DNA of 64,000 nucleotides, taken from contig OZ336895.1 in the NCBI GenBank assembly GCA_965287045.1, positions 31,806,001 to 31,870,000 of the forward strand, written 5' to 3'. The notes under the pieces are model-generated. The model had not been told where the DNA came from. It made no database searches and saw nothing but the letters and a program-made list of their open reading frames with translations. Origin of the DNA: Carcharhinus amblyrhynchos. Taxonomy: Eukaryota. Numbering within the stretch: the first letter of the stretch is position 1; the number at the start of each line of letters is the position of its first letter. Positions 3,352-63,725 of the stretch are shown one piece after another. A program made the translations under genes and the position numbers.

Positions 3352-3690
3352 GGGGGCAGTGGCATAGTGGTATTGTCGCTGGACCAGTAATCCAGAGACC
3401 CAGGGTAATGCTATGGGGGCCCAGGTTTGAATCCCACCATGGCAGATGGTGAAATTTGAATTAAATAAAAATCTGGAATTAAAAGTCTAATGATGATCGT
3501 GAAACCATTGTTGATTGTCGGAAAAACCCATCTAGTTCTAATGTCCTTTAGGGAAGGAAATCTGCCATCCTTACCTGGTCTGGCCTACCTGTGACTCCAG
3601 AGCCACAGCAATGTGGTTGACTCTTAAATGCTGTCAGGGATGGTCAATAATATCTGGCCCAGGCAACAACGCCAACAACCCATGGACAAG
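3352..3690 (+). mobile_element. tRNA-derived SINE family 3 (core possibly Meta-domain/MER131-like; name tentative)
   Basis: A box tggcatagtgg, B box ggtttgaatcc, core aaaacccatct...tttagggaaggaaatctgcc..ccttacctggtctggcctac. Related copies at about 20125, 40208, 49970 and 60774. Confidence 0.8.
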
Positions 3691-4873: not shown

Positions 4874-5214
4874 ATAGAATCATAGAATTCTACAGTGAGA
4901 AAAAGGCCCTTCGGCCCATCGAGTCTACACCAACCGCAATACCACCCAGGTCATACCTCCATATCCCTACATATTTTACCTGTTAATCCCTCTAACCTAC
5001 GCACCTCAGGACACTAAGGGGCAATTTTATCATGGTCAATCAACCTAACCCGCACATCTTTGGACTGTGGGAGAAAACCAGAGCACCTGGAGGAAACCCA
5101 CGCAGACACGAGCAGAATGTGCAAACTCCACACAGACAGTGACCTGAGCCAGGAATCGAACCCAGATCCCTGGAGCTGTGAAGCAGCAGTGCTAACCACT
5201 GTGCTACCGTGCCA
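4874..5214 (-). mobile_element. HE1-like V-SINE, type A
   Basis: Full head, V-domain, and (attctatg)n tail. Confidence 0.92.
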
Positions 5215-5532
5215 CCCAACCAGCCAGATCATCAGTCATGTTATTAGAATGGGGCTTAACATGACTGGCCCAGGGAAGGAAAATCTATTCAGTGGATCAA
5301 CTTTTTCACACCTGATCACATCCAATGAGCCTGTACTGGAAAAAAGTATGTATGCTTCAATTAGGTGGGTTTAGCTTTGGTTATTATTGCCAATACAGAT
5401 AAATAGCCTGCTGACACAATGGTCCAGTTTCTTACAAGAGAATATATTCACTTGTACTGGGGAACCATCACCCAAACTACTCTTGGCTCTTTTTCCAGCA
5501 TCAGTTTTTTCCAGGAGTACGATGATCCACAC

Positions 5533-30583: not shown

Positions 30584-31295
30584 AACATAAGAACATAAGA
30601 ACATAAGAAATAGGAGCAGGAGTAGGCCATCTGGCCCTTCGAGCCTGCCCCGCCATTCAATAAGATCATGGCTGATCTGTCGTGGCTCAGTTCCACTTTC
30701 CCGCCCTCTCCCCATAACCCTTAATCCCCTCTCTTATCAAAAACCCATCAACCCGCTTCTTAAAAATATTTAGCGAGGCAGCCTCCACCACTTCAACGGG
30801 CAGAGAATTCCAGAGATTCACCACCCTTTGAGTGAAGAAGTTCCTCCTCAACTCCGTTCTGAACCGCCCCCCCTTTATCTTGAGGCTGTGCCCCCTAGTC
30901 CTACTGTCTTTTTTGAGCGGGAAGAGTCTTTCCACCTCTATCCTATCCATCCCATTCATCATCTTATACGTCTCAATGAGATCTCCCCTCATTCTTCTAA
31001 ACTCTAACGAGTACAAGCCTAGTTTATTCAGCCTCTCCTCATAGCTCAACCCCCTCAACTCCGGTATCAGCCTAGTAAACCTCCTCTGCACTCCCTCCAA
31101 GGCCAAAATATCCTTGCGCAGGTGCGGCGCCCAAAACTGCACACAGTACTCCAGCTGCGGCCTCACCAATGCCCTATACAGCTGCAGCAAGACCTCCCTA
31201 CTTTTATATTCAATCCCCCTCGCTATGAAGGCCAGCATCCCATTCGCCTTCCTGACCACCTGCTGCACCTGCAGGCTGGGTTTTTGCGACTCATG
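30584..31295 (-). mobile_element. Young CR1 3' fragment inserted in a MITE (about 30476-31370)
   Basis: Open ORF2 C-terminus (ORF 30687-31316), (gttcttat)n tail, and possible gaaac TSD. Nearly identical to 59703-60417. Confidence 0.95.
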
Positions 31296-55741: not shown

Positions 55742-55948
55742 TGTTCAAGCCTCACGGTTGCTGTAGAGTAAAGAAGTCACAAGTTCTGTTTCTTCATAAA
55801 ATACCTTTATTTCTTTGATCCAACTCCACACATAACAACAGATATTGCCACTTGTGGTCCCCTTATATATCAGTGAGTTCAATTGAATAATTGACGTCAA
55901 CTTAGGACTCAATTGGAAGGTCTGTTAACCCATTCCCCATCCCTAACA
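55742..55948 (-). mobile_element. Solo LTR, 207 bp
   Basis: TGTT...AACA termini, exact 5-bp TSD ATAAT (55737-55741 and 55949-55953), and minus-strand TATA and AATAAA. Confidence 0.85.
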
Positions 55949-57049
55949 ATAATGACTAGTTCCTTTGTACAAGATACCATAATAGGCAATCATTTCATCT
56001 CTTTCTACCCAATATTATCTTATCACAATGGGTGTCTCCTTGATGGTTTCTGGCCATCCTTTCCATCATTATATCCTGCAGCACTCGGAAAGTTGCATCT
56101 TGCTGTGTAGTTTGTTTCATCTGAGTAAGACATCTGAAGTCAGATTTAATGTCTTTGCTGGGTTGATGATTTCCAGAGCATTCCGAGCTGTTGCTTCTTG
56201 TTAAATCTGGAAGAATTCACAGTCTGTACAAGCATCAGCAGTTTCTTCAAAGGGAATGTGGCTCTCGACAACGATTCCCACCTACTTCCCTTACTTGTTC
56301 TCCACATCCCAGTGATGTCTCAGCAAACAAAGGAACATCCTTTGGAGCAGACAGAAGCGGTTAGGGAAGCTGCTTTGAAGTGGCCTGTGGTCAGAATCTA
56401 CCATCACGTAATCTGTCCCAAACAGGTCCCGAGTAAAGTGCTCACAAGCAAAGACACTCTTCTCAATCTGTGTATAGAGGTATTGGGCAGGATTTCCTGG
56501 CTCTCCTGCCAGCAATGTTGTGTTGCGGCTTTCTGGCACCATCAGGAGAATAGAGGCTTTGTTAGGAACGAAAGGTATTTATTGATAAGAGAAACTTGGT
56601 ACAGGAGGTTTGCAGCTCCAGGCAGCCCTGGAACAGAGCTCCAGTCTTTACCTGCTTACTACATGGCTGCTCAATGATTCTGCCTTGGAGAAGACTCCAC
56701 CCTTTGGGGTGATCACTCACTCTCAATTTTCATTGCTTCCCCAAGTCAGGTGACTGACTTCTGCTGTACTGTCTTAAAGAAACAGACACCACATACAGGG
56801 CGTCCCTTTAATGTTCTTAAACAATCTGTAAAGTTGATTTACTCAACCCACTTTCTAAAGAAGCATTGTAAGTTAGATATTTGTAAATCAATGTTCAATG
56901 AAGGGTTTGTGAGGCTTGCATTTTACATAACACTTCTTCTAGAAACCTTCTATGCACAGTTCCAAATATAGTCTTCCATGGGATTCTTCCATACAGGTTT
57001 GCTGCTTTCCAAGTTCCATCCTAAACTGTGTGGTCACCATGGTTGATAA

Positions 57050-58885
57050 ACTTTACTCTCCAGATAGTGCCACTCTCTAACCTTTGTGGATCCTTTTCTC
57101 TGTCAAGCACCTCACTCTACACAGCAGGCAGGTACCATCATCTCAAAACAATACAGTCTTACATCTTGACAGTTCTTGTACAATCTTGTTTTGCAACCTG
57201 TGAAGGAAATGGCCATGGTACTCTATGACTGGTACTTAGGTCATGTGATAAAGTTTCTTCTCTTTCTAGCATTTCTTCTCAATATGTTTTCCATTGACCA
57301 TGTTGGGCCTTGTGCATTTCTATTAGTGTGACCATTTCAGCAATCTGCCATGTATTCTGAGGTTCCTTCTCCTGAATTGCTGCTTTGTCTAGCTCTCTCT
57401 AGCACATCTCCTTCAGCTGAGTGGCTTCATTTACCAATCTCTTCCTTTCATCTTCTGTATCAACCAATCTTCTGCTTAAACATGAGTTGTTCTTTATTCA
57501 ATACATATGCTTTTCTATCCTTTCAGTTTATCTGTTACTGACTGTCTTCCAAGATGAATCCATCATTTCCTCCTATCAACATTTAGTAATCTCTTCCTTC
57601 TCATGCTTTACATTTCGTAGAATCCCTACAGTACAGATGGAGGCCATTCGGCCCATTGAGTCTACACTGACCACAATCTCACCCAGGCCTTATTCCTGTA
57701 ACCTCTCATATTTACCCTGCTAATCCCCCTATATTATGATCAATTTAGCATGACCAATCAACCTAACCTGCACATCTTTGGACTGTGGGAGGAAACCAGA
57801 GCACCCGGAGGGAACCCATGTAGGCAGGGGGAGAACATACAAACTCCATACAGCCATTGACCCAAGCCAGGTATTGAACCCAGAACCCTGGCGCTGTGAG
57901 ACAGCAGCGCAAGCTACTGTGCCACTGTGCCATCCTTTATGTTTTCAGAAAACTGGCACATTCCTATTTGTTGTAGTTGCATCAAACTGTACTTCTACGT
58001 TCAACATTTCTACCTTTTTGTTGTTTTTAATTAAACAATTCTCCTGAATTGCTAACTTGTTCAACAGTTGTGTTTTTTCTTTGGGTTTGCCCATTGCTAA
58101 GTCCTCCTCAGCACCCTTGAATACCGGACAGTTTCTGCCTCTCTGCAGAACGCCAAATTCTCCAGCTCATTTGTGTATTTCACACGACTGGTAATTTGAA
58201 CATTCAACTGGCTCTCTAGAGAATTCCCAATAATGGCTCAGGTGAATGATGGCTCTGCTCTAATTTCTGCTTCAACAGTATGGTGACTCTTGCAGTGGAT
58301 GATACAAAATGTTGTATATCAGCACCGTGGATCAAATCCTTGAAGTGCTTCTCTGAGACAATCAGGTCTCTCATTGATCACAAAACTGATCGCATCCCTT
58401 ACATGGGATTTCCTTGGCTCGTCTCGAGTTCCATGTTATGACCTCTGTTGCTGAGTTCCGCTTATGCTGTTTCTCTTGACCCCTTTTACCTTTTATTCAC
58501 ATCTTCATGCGCTAACTCCAGTTGCTTCACCGCTTGCTGGTTGTACAGTTCCTTATGAGCATGAACAGAAATTTCCTAGCAACTTCCACCTTTCTCATCA
58601 TGCATGTTTTTATTTAGCTTTGATGTAGCTGGGCTGCTTCTCATTCAGCTTACGGGTCATAAACCTTCACCTCATATTCTAGTTGCTGCAGTTCTCAGTG
58701 AAGAGTATCCAATTCTTTTCTTTTCACTCACTCTATTTCTTTTCTGTGGCTTTCCTTATTTTAAAATTGATTGCAGCTTTATCGTTTGCTTATAGTTTAT
58801 TGCTACAGCTTCAAGGAACTTCTCATTTCAATAATATAAGAATGGGATGAAACTCTGTTTTCCTTTCAGCTCTTCACTCAGTCAT
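57050..58885 (-). pseudogene. SMC1B: Processed, rearranged SMC1 (SMC1B-like) cohesin fragment
   Basis: With frameshifts and stops: KSHVRDAISFVINE..LR.KHFKDLIHGA..SSTARVT; SFT*AIIGNSLE..LN...YTNELENL; RNCPVFKGAEEDLAMGKPKEKTQL.EQVSNSGEL; ELQQLEYEVKVYD.RKLNEKQPSYIKAK; RGHNMELETSQ. Weaker hinge remnants HGRLLKWSH and PQRL.VALSG. A versus B paralog assignment is tentative. Confidence 0.85.
57616..57935 (-). mobile_element. HE1-like V-SINE, type A, inserted in the SMC1 cargo
   Basis: Full copy; SMC1 homology resumes on both sides. Confidence 0.88.
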
Positions 58886-59158
58886 TTAGGGGCTTTTGGT
58901 GCCTTTTTTGTGTCTTTTGTTGCCCTCCTAAGATCTTTAATTGCCTACTCTGAGTCTGGCATTGTCTGTTCCTTGAGGTCTTAATTTCCTCCTTTGAGGC
59001 CCTGCATTGCCTGTGACCCCCTTTTTAGAGTTGCCTTCCGTCTGAAGTCTTCTTTGACTTTTCTGACCCTTGTTCTCTTGTTCCTTCTTCTGGTTGTTTA
59101 ATTAAAAGTTGTACTACTTAAAATGTATTACCGCTTTAAGACTGTCAGCATCTTTTAA

Positions 59159-60418
59159 TGAGGATGTGTCTAGGGCGGTGGATAGAGGAGAGCCGGTGGA
59201 TGTGGTCTTTCTAGATTTTCAGAAGGCGTTTGACAAGGTACCTCACAAGAGGTTATTGCAGAAGGTCGAGGGACATGGAGTTGGGGGTAGGGTGTTAGCG
59301 TGGATAGAGGATTGGTTGTCAAATAGGAGGCAGAGAGTGGGGGTCAACGGGTGCTATTCGGATTGGCGGATGGTGACTAGTGGACTGCCCCAGGGGTAGG
59401 TGCTGGGGCCTCAGCTTTTTACCATTTATATAGATGATCTGGAGGAGGGAACTGAGTGTATGGTGTCGAAATTTGCTGATGACACCAAGATTGGGGGAAA
59501 GGCAAATTGTGCGGAGGGTGTGGAGAGTCTGCAGAAGGATCTAGATAGGCTGGGCGAATGGGCCAGGAAATGGCAAATGGAATTTAATGTTGGCAAGTGT
59601 GAGGTGGTCCACTTTGGTAGGAAGAATGGTAGGAAGGACTATTACTTACGGGGCGAAAAACTGCAGCAGGCGGCGGTGCAGAGGGACCTCGGGGTCCTTG
59701 TGCATGAGTCGCAAAAACCCAGCTTGCAGGTGCAGCAGGTGGTCAGGAAGGCGAATGGGATGCTGGCCTTCATAGCGAGGGGGATTGAATATAAAAGTAG
59801 GGAGGACTTGCTGCGGCTGTATAGGGCATTGGTGAGGCCGCAGCTGGAGTACTGTGTGCAGTTTTGGGCGCCGCACCTGCGCAAAGATATTTTGGCCTTG
59901 GAGGGAGTGCAGAGGAGGTTTACTAGGCTGATACCGGAGTTGAGGGGGTTGAGCTATGAGGAGAGGCTGAATAAACTAGGCTTGTACTCGTTAGAGTTTA
60001 GAAGAATGAGGGGAGATCTCATTGAGACGTATAAGATGATGAATGGGATGGATAGGATAGAGGTGGAGAGACTCTTCCCGCTCAAAAAAGACAGTAGGAC
60101 TCGGGGGCACAGCCTCAAGATAAAGGGGGGGCGGTTTAGAATGGAGTTGAGGAGGAACTTCTTCACTCAAAGGGTGGTGAATCTCTGGAATTCTCTGCCC
60201 GTTGAAGTGGTGGAGGCTGCCTCGCTAAATATTTTTAAGACGCGGGTTGATGGGTTTTTTGATAAGAGAGGGGATTAAGGGTTATGGGGAGAGGGCGGGA
60301 ATGTGGAACTGAGCAGCGACAGATCAGCCATGATCTTATTGAATGGCGGGGCAGGCTCGAAGGGCTAGATGGCCTACTCCTGCTCCTATTTCTTATGTTC
60401 TTATGTTCTTATGTTCTT
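59159..60418 (+). mobile_element. Young 5'-truncated CR1 (RT domain plus C-terminus)
   Basis: VDVVFLDFQKAFDKVPH, SGLPQG*VLGP and SKFADDTK. One stop at 59397-59399 and a late frameshift. (gttcttat)n tail; CpGs retained. Confidence 0.96.
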
Positions 60419-60773
60419 TAACTGCCATAGGGGCAGTTTATCGTTCTCTCTGTGCTTTTCCCACACTGTTGTGGTTTTTACAGGAAGCTACCAAGAAGCT
60501 CCTCCTTCGTGGATGCTTTTTTTGGATTGTTAACTTCTCTTTGGTGGAGGATTTTTACAAGAATTTGTGCAGCTTTTAATTTTCTTGGCTGAAGAGTGTG
60601 ATGTGACATTCTTTCTGTTAATCCCACCACAGTGGGAGCTGTCCGTTTCAGAACCATTATTTTCTTTTAACTTTTTAACGTATTTTCTTTTTCAAAGGAC
60701 TGCCTTCATCTGAATATTTTCAGACAATACTGCACCCCTTAGTGCAGGGATGGTTCCCTGCTGGCTTTACAAA

Positions 60774-61120
60774 GGACGCAATGGCCTAGTGGTATTATTG
60801 CTAGACTATTAATCCAGAAACTTAGCTAAGGTTCTGGGGACCCGGGTTCGAATCCCGCCACAGCAGATGGTGGAATTTGAATTCAATAAAAAAAATCTGG
60901 AACTAAAAATCTACTGATGACCGTGAAACCATTGTTGATTGTTGGAAAAACCCATCTGGTTCACTGATATCCTTTAAGAAAGGAAGTCTGCTGTTCTTAC
61001 CTGGTCTGGCCTACATGTGACTCTAGAGCCACAGCAATGTGGTTGACTCTGAACTAGGGACGGGCAATAAATGCTGGCCAGCCAGTGATGCCCATGTCCC
61101 ACGAATGAATTAAAAAAAAA
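60774..61120 (+). mobile_element. SINE family 3
   Basis: A box tggcctagtgg, B box ggttcgaatcc, core, tail and A-rich end. Confidence 0.88.
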
Positions 61121-61640
61121 GGCTTTGTTCAGATTGAGAGGACTACAAATCTCTTCACTTTTCCACACTTTTCACATAAGTTTTTCAGTTCCTGAGACTT
61201 TCATTTTTCTCCTTTTTTACTTCAGAACTTTTCAACTGCGGCCAATATCTTCTTCAAAAAAAAATTTCTTCCAGATTTATCTTTTTTGAGTCTGAAACAA
61301 ATCTTTCTTTTAGCTGGCTATATCTTTCTTTTGTAAAAAGATATCTCCTATCCTTTCTCTTCCTAATTTCCTTTTCCTCGCTCCTGATTCTAACCGCTCT
61401 TCATTCCAATTTTTTTTTTTAAAAATCTTTCAAGAACTCAAAATTTCAAGATTTCAGAAAATATCTTTCAAGATCTCTTTACTTGCCAGTAACACCGGGT
61501 TCAGTGTTTCAACTGCCCCTCCAGGCCAAGCACTGGCTCAACAAGTTTCGCTACGTCTGTTTGCTAAGTCAAGCAGTATCCCTCCTTTCCAACTTTAGTT
61601 AAACCAGATACTCACAGGGAGGCTGTGCCATTCAATAGAT

Positions 61641-61657
61641 TCCCATCCTTGTTGCCA
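61641..61657 (-). promoter_or_regulatory. Primer-binding site, tRNA-Ser(GCT) type
   Basis: Minus strand TGGCAACAAGGATGGGA, 3 nt inside the LTR. Equals TGGCGACGAGGATGGGA after two CpG transitions. Confidence 0.75.
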
Positions 61658-62429
61658 GTATGTTGTGTTGAGGCTTTCTAGCCTCAAGAAGCAGTTTGTG
61701 ACATTGTTAGGAACGTAAGATACTTATTGATAATAGAAACGTGATACAGGAGGTTTATGCAGCATGAAGGCTGCCCCGGGGCAGTGCTCCAGTCTGTACT
61801 TGCTTATTACATGGATGATTCTGCTTGAGATAGGACTCTACCCTCATCACTCATTCTCTCCTTCCATTGGTCCCTCAAGTCAGGTGACTTCTACTATACT
61901 GTCTTAAAGAGACAGCCACCACATACACAACAAGTGAGATCTTCCAGTCCCACTGATGGCAAGGCCCTGCCACGGATTCCCCGGTGATGGAGGGTGCCAA
62001 TAACAGGAAACCCTGTTGACAGCGGTGTGACCTGCCCAATTGCGGGCTGCCTCCGCTCCTCAAAATAAATTCCACCCATTCGTTTTGTGTTAATGCCTTA
62101 GATGCAAACACAGCTGGGTATCCTTGCCACATGAGGGTTCCTGCAAGTCCTGTTAGTCTGGCATCACACTGCAGGGCGACTTCGTCATTAACATTAGAGT
62201 AGCGAATCCTGAACATATTTTGTAGTGAACATGTGTCGAGGTTTGCATACTGATGACAAGCTGGGCAAGAGCCTTGTTAGTTAGTTCACAAGTCCAACAA
62301 ATTGTTACATTGCCTTCACATCCGTTGGTTGCATCTCTGCTACAGCTCGTATTTCATCAGGATGAAGTTCTTTTGCCATCTGAACATGACCTGTGTACTT
62401 GATCTTTGTGATAACTCCCAGGACTTGCA

Positions 62430-62657
62430 TGTGGAATGACTGATTGACTTTCCTGTAGGACTCGCTGAATATGAGCTCCCTGGGGATTGGTAATTAACTA
62501 ACGTATACCAAGCCTTGTATGAAGCAGACCCCTGAGCGGGTCTATAATTGCATTGTCCCAGCTGGAACCTGTTTGTGTTCACCACAGTTTTGTTTTACTT
62601 TATTTTGTGCAATAAAGCACTGTTCCTTTATAGCCAACTCCTGGAGTTACTATAACC
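62430..62657 (+). mobile_element. Probable solo LTR inside the Gypsy RT
   Basis: Starts TGT, contains TATAA and AATAAA, and interrupts RT between NLKL and KYTGHV. Right end and TSD are degenerate. Confidence 0.55.
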
Positions 62658-63429
62658 TTCAGTTTATTCTTAATAAGTTTCAGGTTCATCAGGTAAGCTC
62701 TGTCTAGTCGTCTCACTAGATTCTGATCATGGTCTGCGATGGTTTCTTCCATCATGTTCATGTACTAGCAGATCTTTCAGCATCATATCCACTCCTGGAG
62801 GATCACTGCTGACCTCATGCAGTCTGCATTGATACTCACCCAAGGTGGTAAAAATGCCAAACAGCATGCACAACCAACTATATGTCCCAAATGGCATCCA
62901 GAATGTAGTCCAAACACTCATGCTTTCATCCAACTTCACTTACTAGTGTCCATCCTTCACATCGAGCCTGGTATCCAAAACCTATGCCTTGGAAAGTTGT
63001 GGCAGAATTGGGATAGTGAGGATTCTTCAACGTTTTATTGAGGTCTTTTGGATCTATGCACACTGTCAGCTTTTCCACTCCCTTCTCTCTGAAACCATTC
63101 TGCTAATCGAGACTGTAGGAGTTGTCGCTTTCCTGATTTCTCCAATGGTTTCAAGTTCCTCCATCGTGTCTTTCAAGCTAGACTCGAGGTCAGCTGGAAC
63201 TCCCCTCGGAAGATGTGGAATTCGTCTCACACTCTCATTGTCGTCAAGGTGATTTTTGTCAGAAAGACATCCAAGAGCCATGGAAACATCTTTGTAATTC
63301 TTCAGGATTTGTTCGTCAGTCAATGGCTTTGTGCCGTGTGAATTACTGCGAACCTTGTCTGGTCCTCGGATGGGTTACCAGTCCAAGCTTTTGACTTGTG
63401 GCAGTTGAGACGAGGGTTTCCTTTTTTAA

Positions 63430-63725
63430 AAATTTATTTATTAGTGTCACAAGCAGGTTTACATTAACACTGCAATGAAGTTACTGTGAAAATCCCCTAG
63501 TCGCCACACTCCAGCACCTGTTCGGGTACACTGAGGGAGAATTTAGCCTGACCAATGCACCCAATCAGCACGTCTTTCAGAGAAAATCAGAGCACCCGAA
63601 GGAAACTCACGCAGACACAGGGAGAACATACAAACTCCGCACAGGCAGTGATCCAAGCTGGGAATCAAACCCAGGGATCCTGGTGTTGTGAGGCAGCAGT
63701 GCTAACCACTGCCTCACTGTGCAAT
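63430..63725 (-). mobile_element. V-SINE, type B
   Basis: Head, V-domain and type B tail, inside the Gypsy pol. Confidence 0.88.

Follow-up and report, generated by a model that had tools for sequence, protein, structure and literature searches.

A non-autonomous LTR retroelement family in a shark genome that carries single, permuted laps of host exons, very probably acquired serially from circular RNAs

We analysed 64,000 nt of the genome of Carcharhinus amblyrhynchos (GCA_965287045.1, contig OZ336895.1, positions 31,806,001 to 31,870,000; hereafter the window). On its minus strand, between positions 56516 and 61932, lies a decayed long terminal repeat (LTR) retroelement that carries exons of the cohesin gene SMC1B, joined without introns, together with remnants of the host genes SYCP1, SLMAP and RABGAP1. 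An initial annotation had described an LTR element with a captured fragment of a linear SMC1B-like mRNA; it had overlooked the permuted exon order of that fragment and the three further cargoes. The template appears instead to have been a back-spliced circle of exons 2-6, copied for one lap, i.e. once round.

The two LTRs align at 76% over 296 nt (61653-61927 versus 56507-56797, E 1e-50). Their true termini, TGTTGTG...CACAACA with a short terminal inverted repeat, were read from family copies; they leave the annotated 3' end at 56516 in place and move the start of the 5' LTR from 61927 to 61932. Within these bounds (Table 1) the LTRs are 82.9% identical, with a Kimura two-parameter (K2P) distance of 0.196, and K2P values of 0.17-0.29 were obtained across the 10 copies where both LTRs were recovered. 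The primer-binding site (PBS), rightly annotated as tRNA-Ser type, stands 3 nt from the 5' LTR, and its motif as read from the copies falls on tRNA-Ser(GCT) genes in 3/3 loci scanned. A polypurine tract (PPT) precedes the 3' LTR in many copies. The window copy is flanked by tcact on its 5' side and ttgct on its 3' side, a 5-bp target duplication, and the empty site obtained by collapsing the flanks is a repeat motif common in the genome, with 455 matches versus 0 for a reversed control; the unit was therefore integrated once. These results rule out two independent solo LTRs, the alternative that the initial annotation had set against a single element. Among other copies, 3-4 of the 5 positions of the target duplication match in L017, L033, L039 and L051, and none in L036. 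Matches to the tRNA-Ser(GCT) motif lie mostly (47/53) on contig G000:C43, in a large tRNA gene cluster.

The main cargo is SMC1 sequence in the sense orientation of the element, as annotated. A PDB search with the window cargo returned SMC1A for all 5 best matches (E 0.009-0.05), and tblastn against shark SMC1B gave E 2.5e-17, with only residues 34-371 matched. At the DNA level, five exons match the host SMC1B gene (G000:C6, 87.92-87.94 Mb) at 73-80% identity; SMC1A gave no exon-length DNA match and was rejected as the source. The SMC1B-like origin proposed earlier is thus borne out, and the introns at G100 and Q137 are indeed crossed without intron sequence.

The order of the cargo is permuted: residues 214-371 precede 38-198, and the exons run 5, 6, 2, 3, 4, with host exons 5-6 joined exactly to 2-3-4-5. 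The summed length of exons 2-6 is 1004 nt. When four junction models were compared, exon 6 joined to exon 2 was the best in 21/21 copies, which had been chosen with a query containing the junction; in a second sample of 20, chosen by the 3' region of the element instead, the lap was matched in 16/20 and the junction spanned in 10/20. The lap starts at nt 22-26 of exon 5 in 12/21 copies, never earlier, and ends at nt 27-30 of the same exon in 9/21, never later, so that it is opened within exon 5 with an overlap of ~6 nt. Exons 1 and 7, outside the circle, have one genome candidate each, as against 97 for exon 3. No poly(A) tail and no long target-site duplication (TSD) is found at the lap ends. 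Most copies keep the base that gives Asp as in the SMC1B of other sharks, where the host gene now has Val. The permuted order, the exact junction, the fixed lap ends and the single-copy outer exons argue for a back-spliced exon 2-6 circle as the template. At the exon 4/5 junction (window 57590-57600) the copies enter exon 5 only at its fifth nt, and the 4 nt skipped end in AG; this may reflect an alternative splice acceptor in the circular RNA (circRNA) or a slip in the founder.

Downstream of the SMC1B lap, the sequence matches the SCP-1 profile (E 4e-8) and solved SYCP1 structures (E 8e-7). All 19 loci picked with the SCP-1 profile contain element parts and SYCP1, and none contains SMC1B (0/19). 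This cargo comprises 11 host exons (A-K, 925 nt) joined without introns, which span 151 kb in the host gene on G000:C22, and the lap runs from nt 80 of exon A round to nt 85 of exon A. The exact K/A back-splice junction is present in 5/19 loci. The next SYCP1 exon outside the circle has 2 genome candidates, one of which is an ordinary SYCP1 retrocopy.

Three minor observations concern SYCP1. A separate colinear copy (G000:C11:42126842-42127833, about residues 711-1002) is probably an ordinary processed pseudogene. Three different insertions resembling miniature inverted-repeat transposable elements (MITEs) occupy the same position of exon H (nt 61-63), which suggests a strong target preference. 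Immediately before the SYCP1 lap, a 157-nt piece (L079:2166-2322, minus strand) has one nearly open frame and 362 genome candidates; among the 40 of these that were scored, no host exon stood out, and the piece may be a fifth cargo or may belong to the element.

The RABGAP1 and SLMAP pieces were identified by sequence search; Atlas searches gave unrelated low-value matches only. The RABGAP1 cargo has four exons (R1-R4, 459 nt). Complete laps, starting at R2 nt 32-38 and ending at R2 nt 36-37, occur in L016, L058, L127 and L133, and a base-exact R4/R1 junction in L058 and L060. The SLMAP cargo consists of two whole exons, a and b, and in 28/32 copies the last 10 nt of exon b stand ahead of them, so that it is probably also a single back-spliced lap. 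For both genes the next exon outside the circle has 1 genome candidate. Words of 3-7 nt are shared at the SLMAP and RABGAP1 switch points, as judged by eye and not by simulation. An 18-nt stretch of SLMAP exon b, since lost by the host gene (L151, G000:C3:30539537), is kept in the element copies, and other sharks likewise have the longer exon; the host exon a ends in a GC donor.

The subfamilies are nested in content, from SYCP1 alone, through the addition of SLMAP (L125), SMC1B (L006, L010, L129) and RABGAP1 (L127, L133, L058), to copies with deletions. We infer that the captures took place in that order. SMC1B would thus be the third of four captures; the proposal of a family carrying a meiotic cohesin fragment holds in that SMC1B is carried, but SYCP1 and SLMAP preceded it. 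L126, L128 and L131 appear to be recombinants between subfamilies. In the window copy the SMC1B lap is whole and the other three cargoes are reduced to remnants; it is of the late type, after loss of parts by deletion. Each later capture replaced element sequence: ~140 nt or more at SMC1B, ~14 nt at SLMAP, and several hundred nt of SYCP1 at RABGAP1. All four laps are in the sense orientation, within one lineage.

First-look searches returned 370 genome candidates with the cargo, 554 with the 3' region and 706 with the LTR; these are not copy numbers, and 40 from each list were scored. The family amounts to hundreds of copies in the genome. Of the best 20 cargo loci fetched, all have element flanks and 17 have LTR sequence inside the 8.5 kb taken, in agreement with the multicopy, non-autonomous family with linked LTR and cargo that had been predicted. 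Three other organisms have DNA contigs with the family, near-identical pieces of the window insertion and records bridging the junction at 58414. No pol family was found in the internal regions scanned, and the copies are without reverse transcriptase (RT) or integrase of their own; with LTRs, PBS and PPT, target duplication and dispersed copies lacking RT, this is a non-autonomous LTR retroelement. None of the 20 loci picked by the 3' region is a cargo-free parent; in L048, L053 and L058 the SMC1B lap is still represented by its 3' end, and the L043 copy is truncated. Reading the 3' backbone as a chromodomain or a protease was not supported; three related loci lack the protease-like word of L067, for which neither Pfam nor PDB gave a match. 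Every copy translated has stops or frameshifts, including the window copy, which the initial annotation had rightly called dead, and two of the four circles have lengths not divisible by three. The cargo was presumably a neutral passenger.

The best explanation of these observations, and one that we consider very probable, is serial capture of circRNAs, one lap at a time, by an LTR lineage through template switching of RT. A non-autonomous lineage would have been mobilised in trans in the germ line, with host exonic circRNAs repeatedly packaged together with the element RNA. During minus-strand synthesis, a short microhomology would let RT pass from the element RNA to a circle, copy through the back-splice junction and complete a full lap, where it would meet the stretch already degraded by its own RNase H; it would then return to the element RNA, part of the element being replaced. 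At least four captures would have taken place in one lineage: circSYCP1 (925 nt), circSLMAP (2 exons, probable), circSMC1B (1004 nt) and circRABGAP1 (459 nt). Each chimeric master would have been amplified, later ones shedding parts by deletion. SMC1B and SYCP1 are meiosis-specific, which would place the activity of the element in germ cells. It is established enzymology that an RNase H-active RT destroys the template behind itself; presumably it cannot go much past one lap of a circle, which would explain why the laps of unrelated genes depart from one unit by only 2-7 nt. All four cargoes code for coiled coils and, like the repeats of the element itself, are rich in purines, which may have favoured switching.

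Several points weigh against this reading. None of the proposed parent circles has been observed in RNA; one sequencing run, presumed to be RNA, gave no read depth over the SMC1B lap, which bears neither way on expression. The K/A junction was lost through internal deletion in 14/19 SYCP1 loci, and most RABGAP1 copies lost theirs through deletion. The SLMAP circle is graded as probable only, because 6 of its 10 junction nt are also found in SYCP1 exon A and only 2-3 nt discriminate. The microhomology at the SMC1B lap ends is ambiguous, the capture order is based on nested content and not on a tree, and the loci examined yielded neither an autonomous partner or RT, by which the family could be compared with Ty3/Gypsy, nor a cargo-free backbone.

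Three other routes to the same sequences were weighed. If circRNAs were first copied into small DNA circles that entered the element DNA by a single crossover at microhomology, one lap with a short terminal duplication would be expected equally; a single crossover should lose nothing, however, and the replacement of element sequence at the SMC1B, SLMAP and RABGAP1 captures argues against such integration. The sense orientation of all four laps in a single lineage also speaks against it, and we regard this route as very improbable. Less probable still are linear RNAs with repeated exon blocks, produced by tandem exon duplication or trans-splicing. They would carry the identical exon-exact non-colinear junction, and other origins of such junctions have been noted in work on circRNA-derived pseudogenes (PMC4897178), yet with a linear template there is no reason why copying should stop at one unit plus 2-7 nt in each of three or four unrelated genes, neighbouring exons never appear in the copies, and the host stretches fetched contain no duplicated exon block. 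Least probable of all is the formation of circRNA-derived pseudogenes by a long interspersed element (LINE) inside an existing LTR element that later carried them along: LINEs and short interspersed elements (SINEs) are abundant and present within family copies, but the absence of poly(A) tails and long TSDs at every lap end argues against a LINE, target-primed insertion leaves the flanking sequence in place, and a single lineage is unlikely to have been hit four times in the same small region.

Serial capture from circRNAs joins two known processes in a new combination. The first is the formation of circRNA-derived pseudogenes, described for mouse circRFWD2 with 33 high-confidence copies by a mechanism called mysterious in the main text (Dong et al. 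2016, PMC4897178). As in that system, a back-splice junction has been fixed in the genome in many copies; the SMC1B, SYCP1 and RABGAP1 cargoes, and probably SLMAP, have an exon-exact non-colinear junction, with no sequence from outside the circles and no poly(A) tail. The circRFWD2 copies are reported to have few adenosines at the 3' end, like the shark laps, and flanks enriched in LTRs (MMERVK10C-int is marked in Fig. 1D of PMC4897178), a further likeness to the shark family. Their length is variable according to the main text, whereas the shark laps are single with fixed ends and, unlike circRFWD2, the shark cargo lies inside a defined LTR-PBS-PPT-LTR unit with four genes in series.

The second process is LTR-mediated retroposition, in which templates switch at microsimilarity with a median of 6 bp (Tan et al. 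2016, PMC5131818). Common to both are the replacement of internal sequence by cargo, multi-gene chimeras, further non-autonomous rounds and mostly sense transcription. The donors described there are linear mRNAs, copied over arbitrary lengths, whereas in the shark they would be circles, with the circle setting the length; the main text of PMC5131818 has 0 occurrences of 'circular' or 'circRNA'. Maize Bs1 (three genes) and HERV-K/FAM8A1, both cited in that paper, are likewise LTR elements with spliced host sequence, and its passages on them describe no back-spliced single-lap cargo. In a literature search that covered mostly open-access papers, with repeat databases outside it, neither this family nor the serial capture of single laps was found described.

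The route by which circRNAs are retrotransposed was left open in the main text of PMC4897178, and the shark family would be a case of circRNAs written back into the genome. Three clear events and one probable event have one geometry (a single lap, 2-7 nt of overlap, replaced element sequence, sense strand), and geometry shared by independent events points to a specific, testable mechanism and offers a rule by which other genomes can be searched. The ancestral shark germ line would have contained circles from two meiosis genes. In practical terms, hundreds of decayed SMC1B and SYCP1 look-alikes, with back-splice junctions in genomic DNA, can confound shark annotation and circRNA calling. Since all four identified cargoes (SLMAP only probably) would derive from circles, circRNAs may be the preferred donors for gene capture by this lineage, a suggestion to which we give slightly less than an even chance. 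If so, a stable, endless RNA would be co-packaged and an RNase H-active RT forced off it after one lap; permuted one-lap cargo would mark LTR capture in general, a sign overlooked so far, and elements of this kind would serve as fossils of ancient germ-line circRNAs. More speculatively, meiotic cargo might have given masters an advantage, or might yield small RNAs against SMC1B and SYCP1.

Table 1. Features of the window copy (window positions), with the exon H insertions of other copies in the last row
Feature	Position	Strand	Basis
TSD, 5' side (tcact)	61933..61937	-	flank reading, empty-site search
5' LTR, TG...CA	61661..61932	-	LTR alignment, copies' termini
PBS, tRNA-Ser(GCT) type, CpG-decayed	61641..61657	-	tRNA gene match
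5' internal backbone, ends in purine-rich tandem repeats, no Pfam match, two later insertions inside	58876..61640	-	
SINE-like high-copy insertion, later	60774..61128	.	
LINE insertion, later, 98% to window 30584-31295	59160..60415	+	
SMC1B lap, first part: exon 5 nt 25 to exon 6 end	58414..58875	-	
Back-splice junction, SMC1B exon 6/exon 2 (GAGCCAA / GGAAATCC)	58413..58414	-	
SMC1B lap: exons 2, 3 and most of 4	57933..58413	-	
SINE insertion, later, near SMC1B exon 4 end	57615..57932	.	
SMC1B lap end: exon 4 end to exon 5 nt ~30	57568..57614	-	
19-nt parent-element remnant, then SYCP1 lap start (exon A nt 80 on)	57542..57567	-	
SLMAP remnant: last ~10 nt of exon b joined to exon a start (probable back-splice); remainder deleted in this copy	57508..57541	-	
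RABGAP1 remnant: exon R1 nt 10 to R2 nt 37, final third of a lap complete in other copies	57380..57513	-	
SYCP1 remnants: exon H nt 26 to exon I nt 65, then exon A nt 46-85 (lap end)	57225..57379	-	
3' backbone, ends in PPT, no recognisable coding family	56803..57224	-	
3' LTR	56516..56802	-	
TSD, 3' side (ttgct)	56511..56515	-	
MITE-like insertions in SYCP1 exon H	L015:oriented 5194-5324; L062:3599-3738; L079:oriented 3421-3552		

The window copy later received a SINE, a LINE, which we take to be CR1-like, and a second SINE. The element itself was inserted into a small inverted-repeat element (window 61938-62080 and 56480-56510). This is enclosed in turn by decayed sequence (55900-56480 and 62080-63500) that has no Pfam match and that we assume to be pol-like from its RNase H-like words. 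An oppositely oriented family copy (L001, G000:C26:31.79 Mb) is located ~70 kb from the window and has 88% cargo identity versus 70-82% for the others. Near-identical family copies stand ~25 kb apart at G000:C9:101.32-101.37 Mb, and a second cluster is found at G000:C4:118.72-118.80 Mb; both are probably local segmental duplications.

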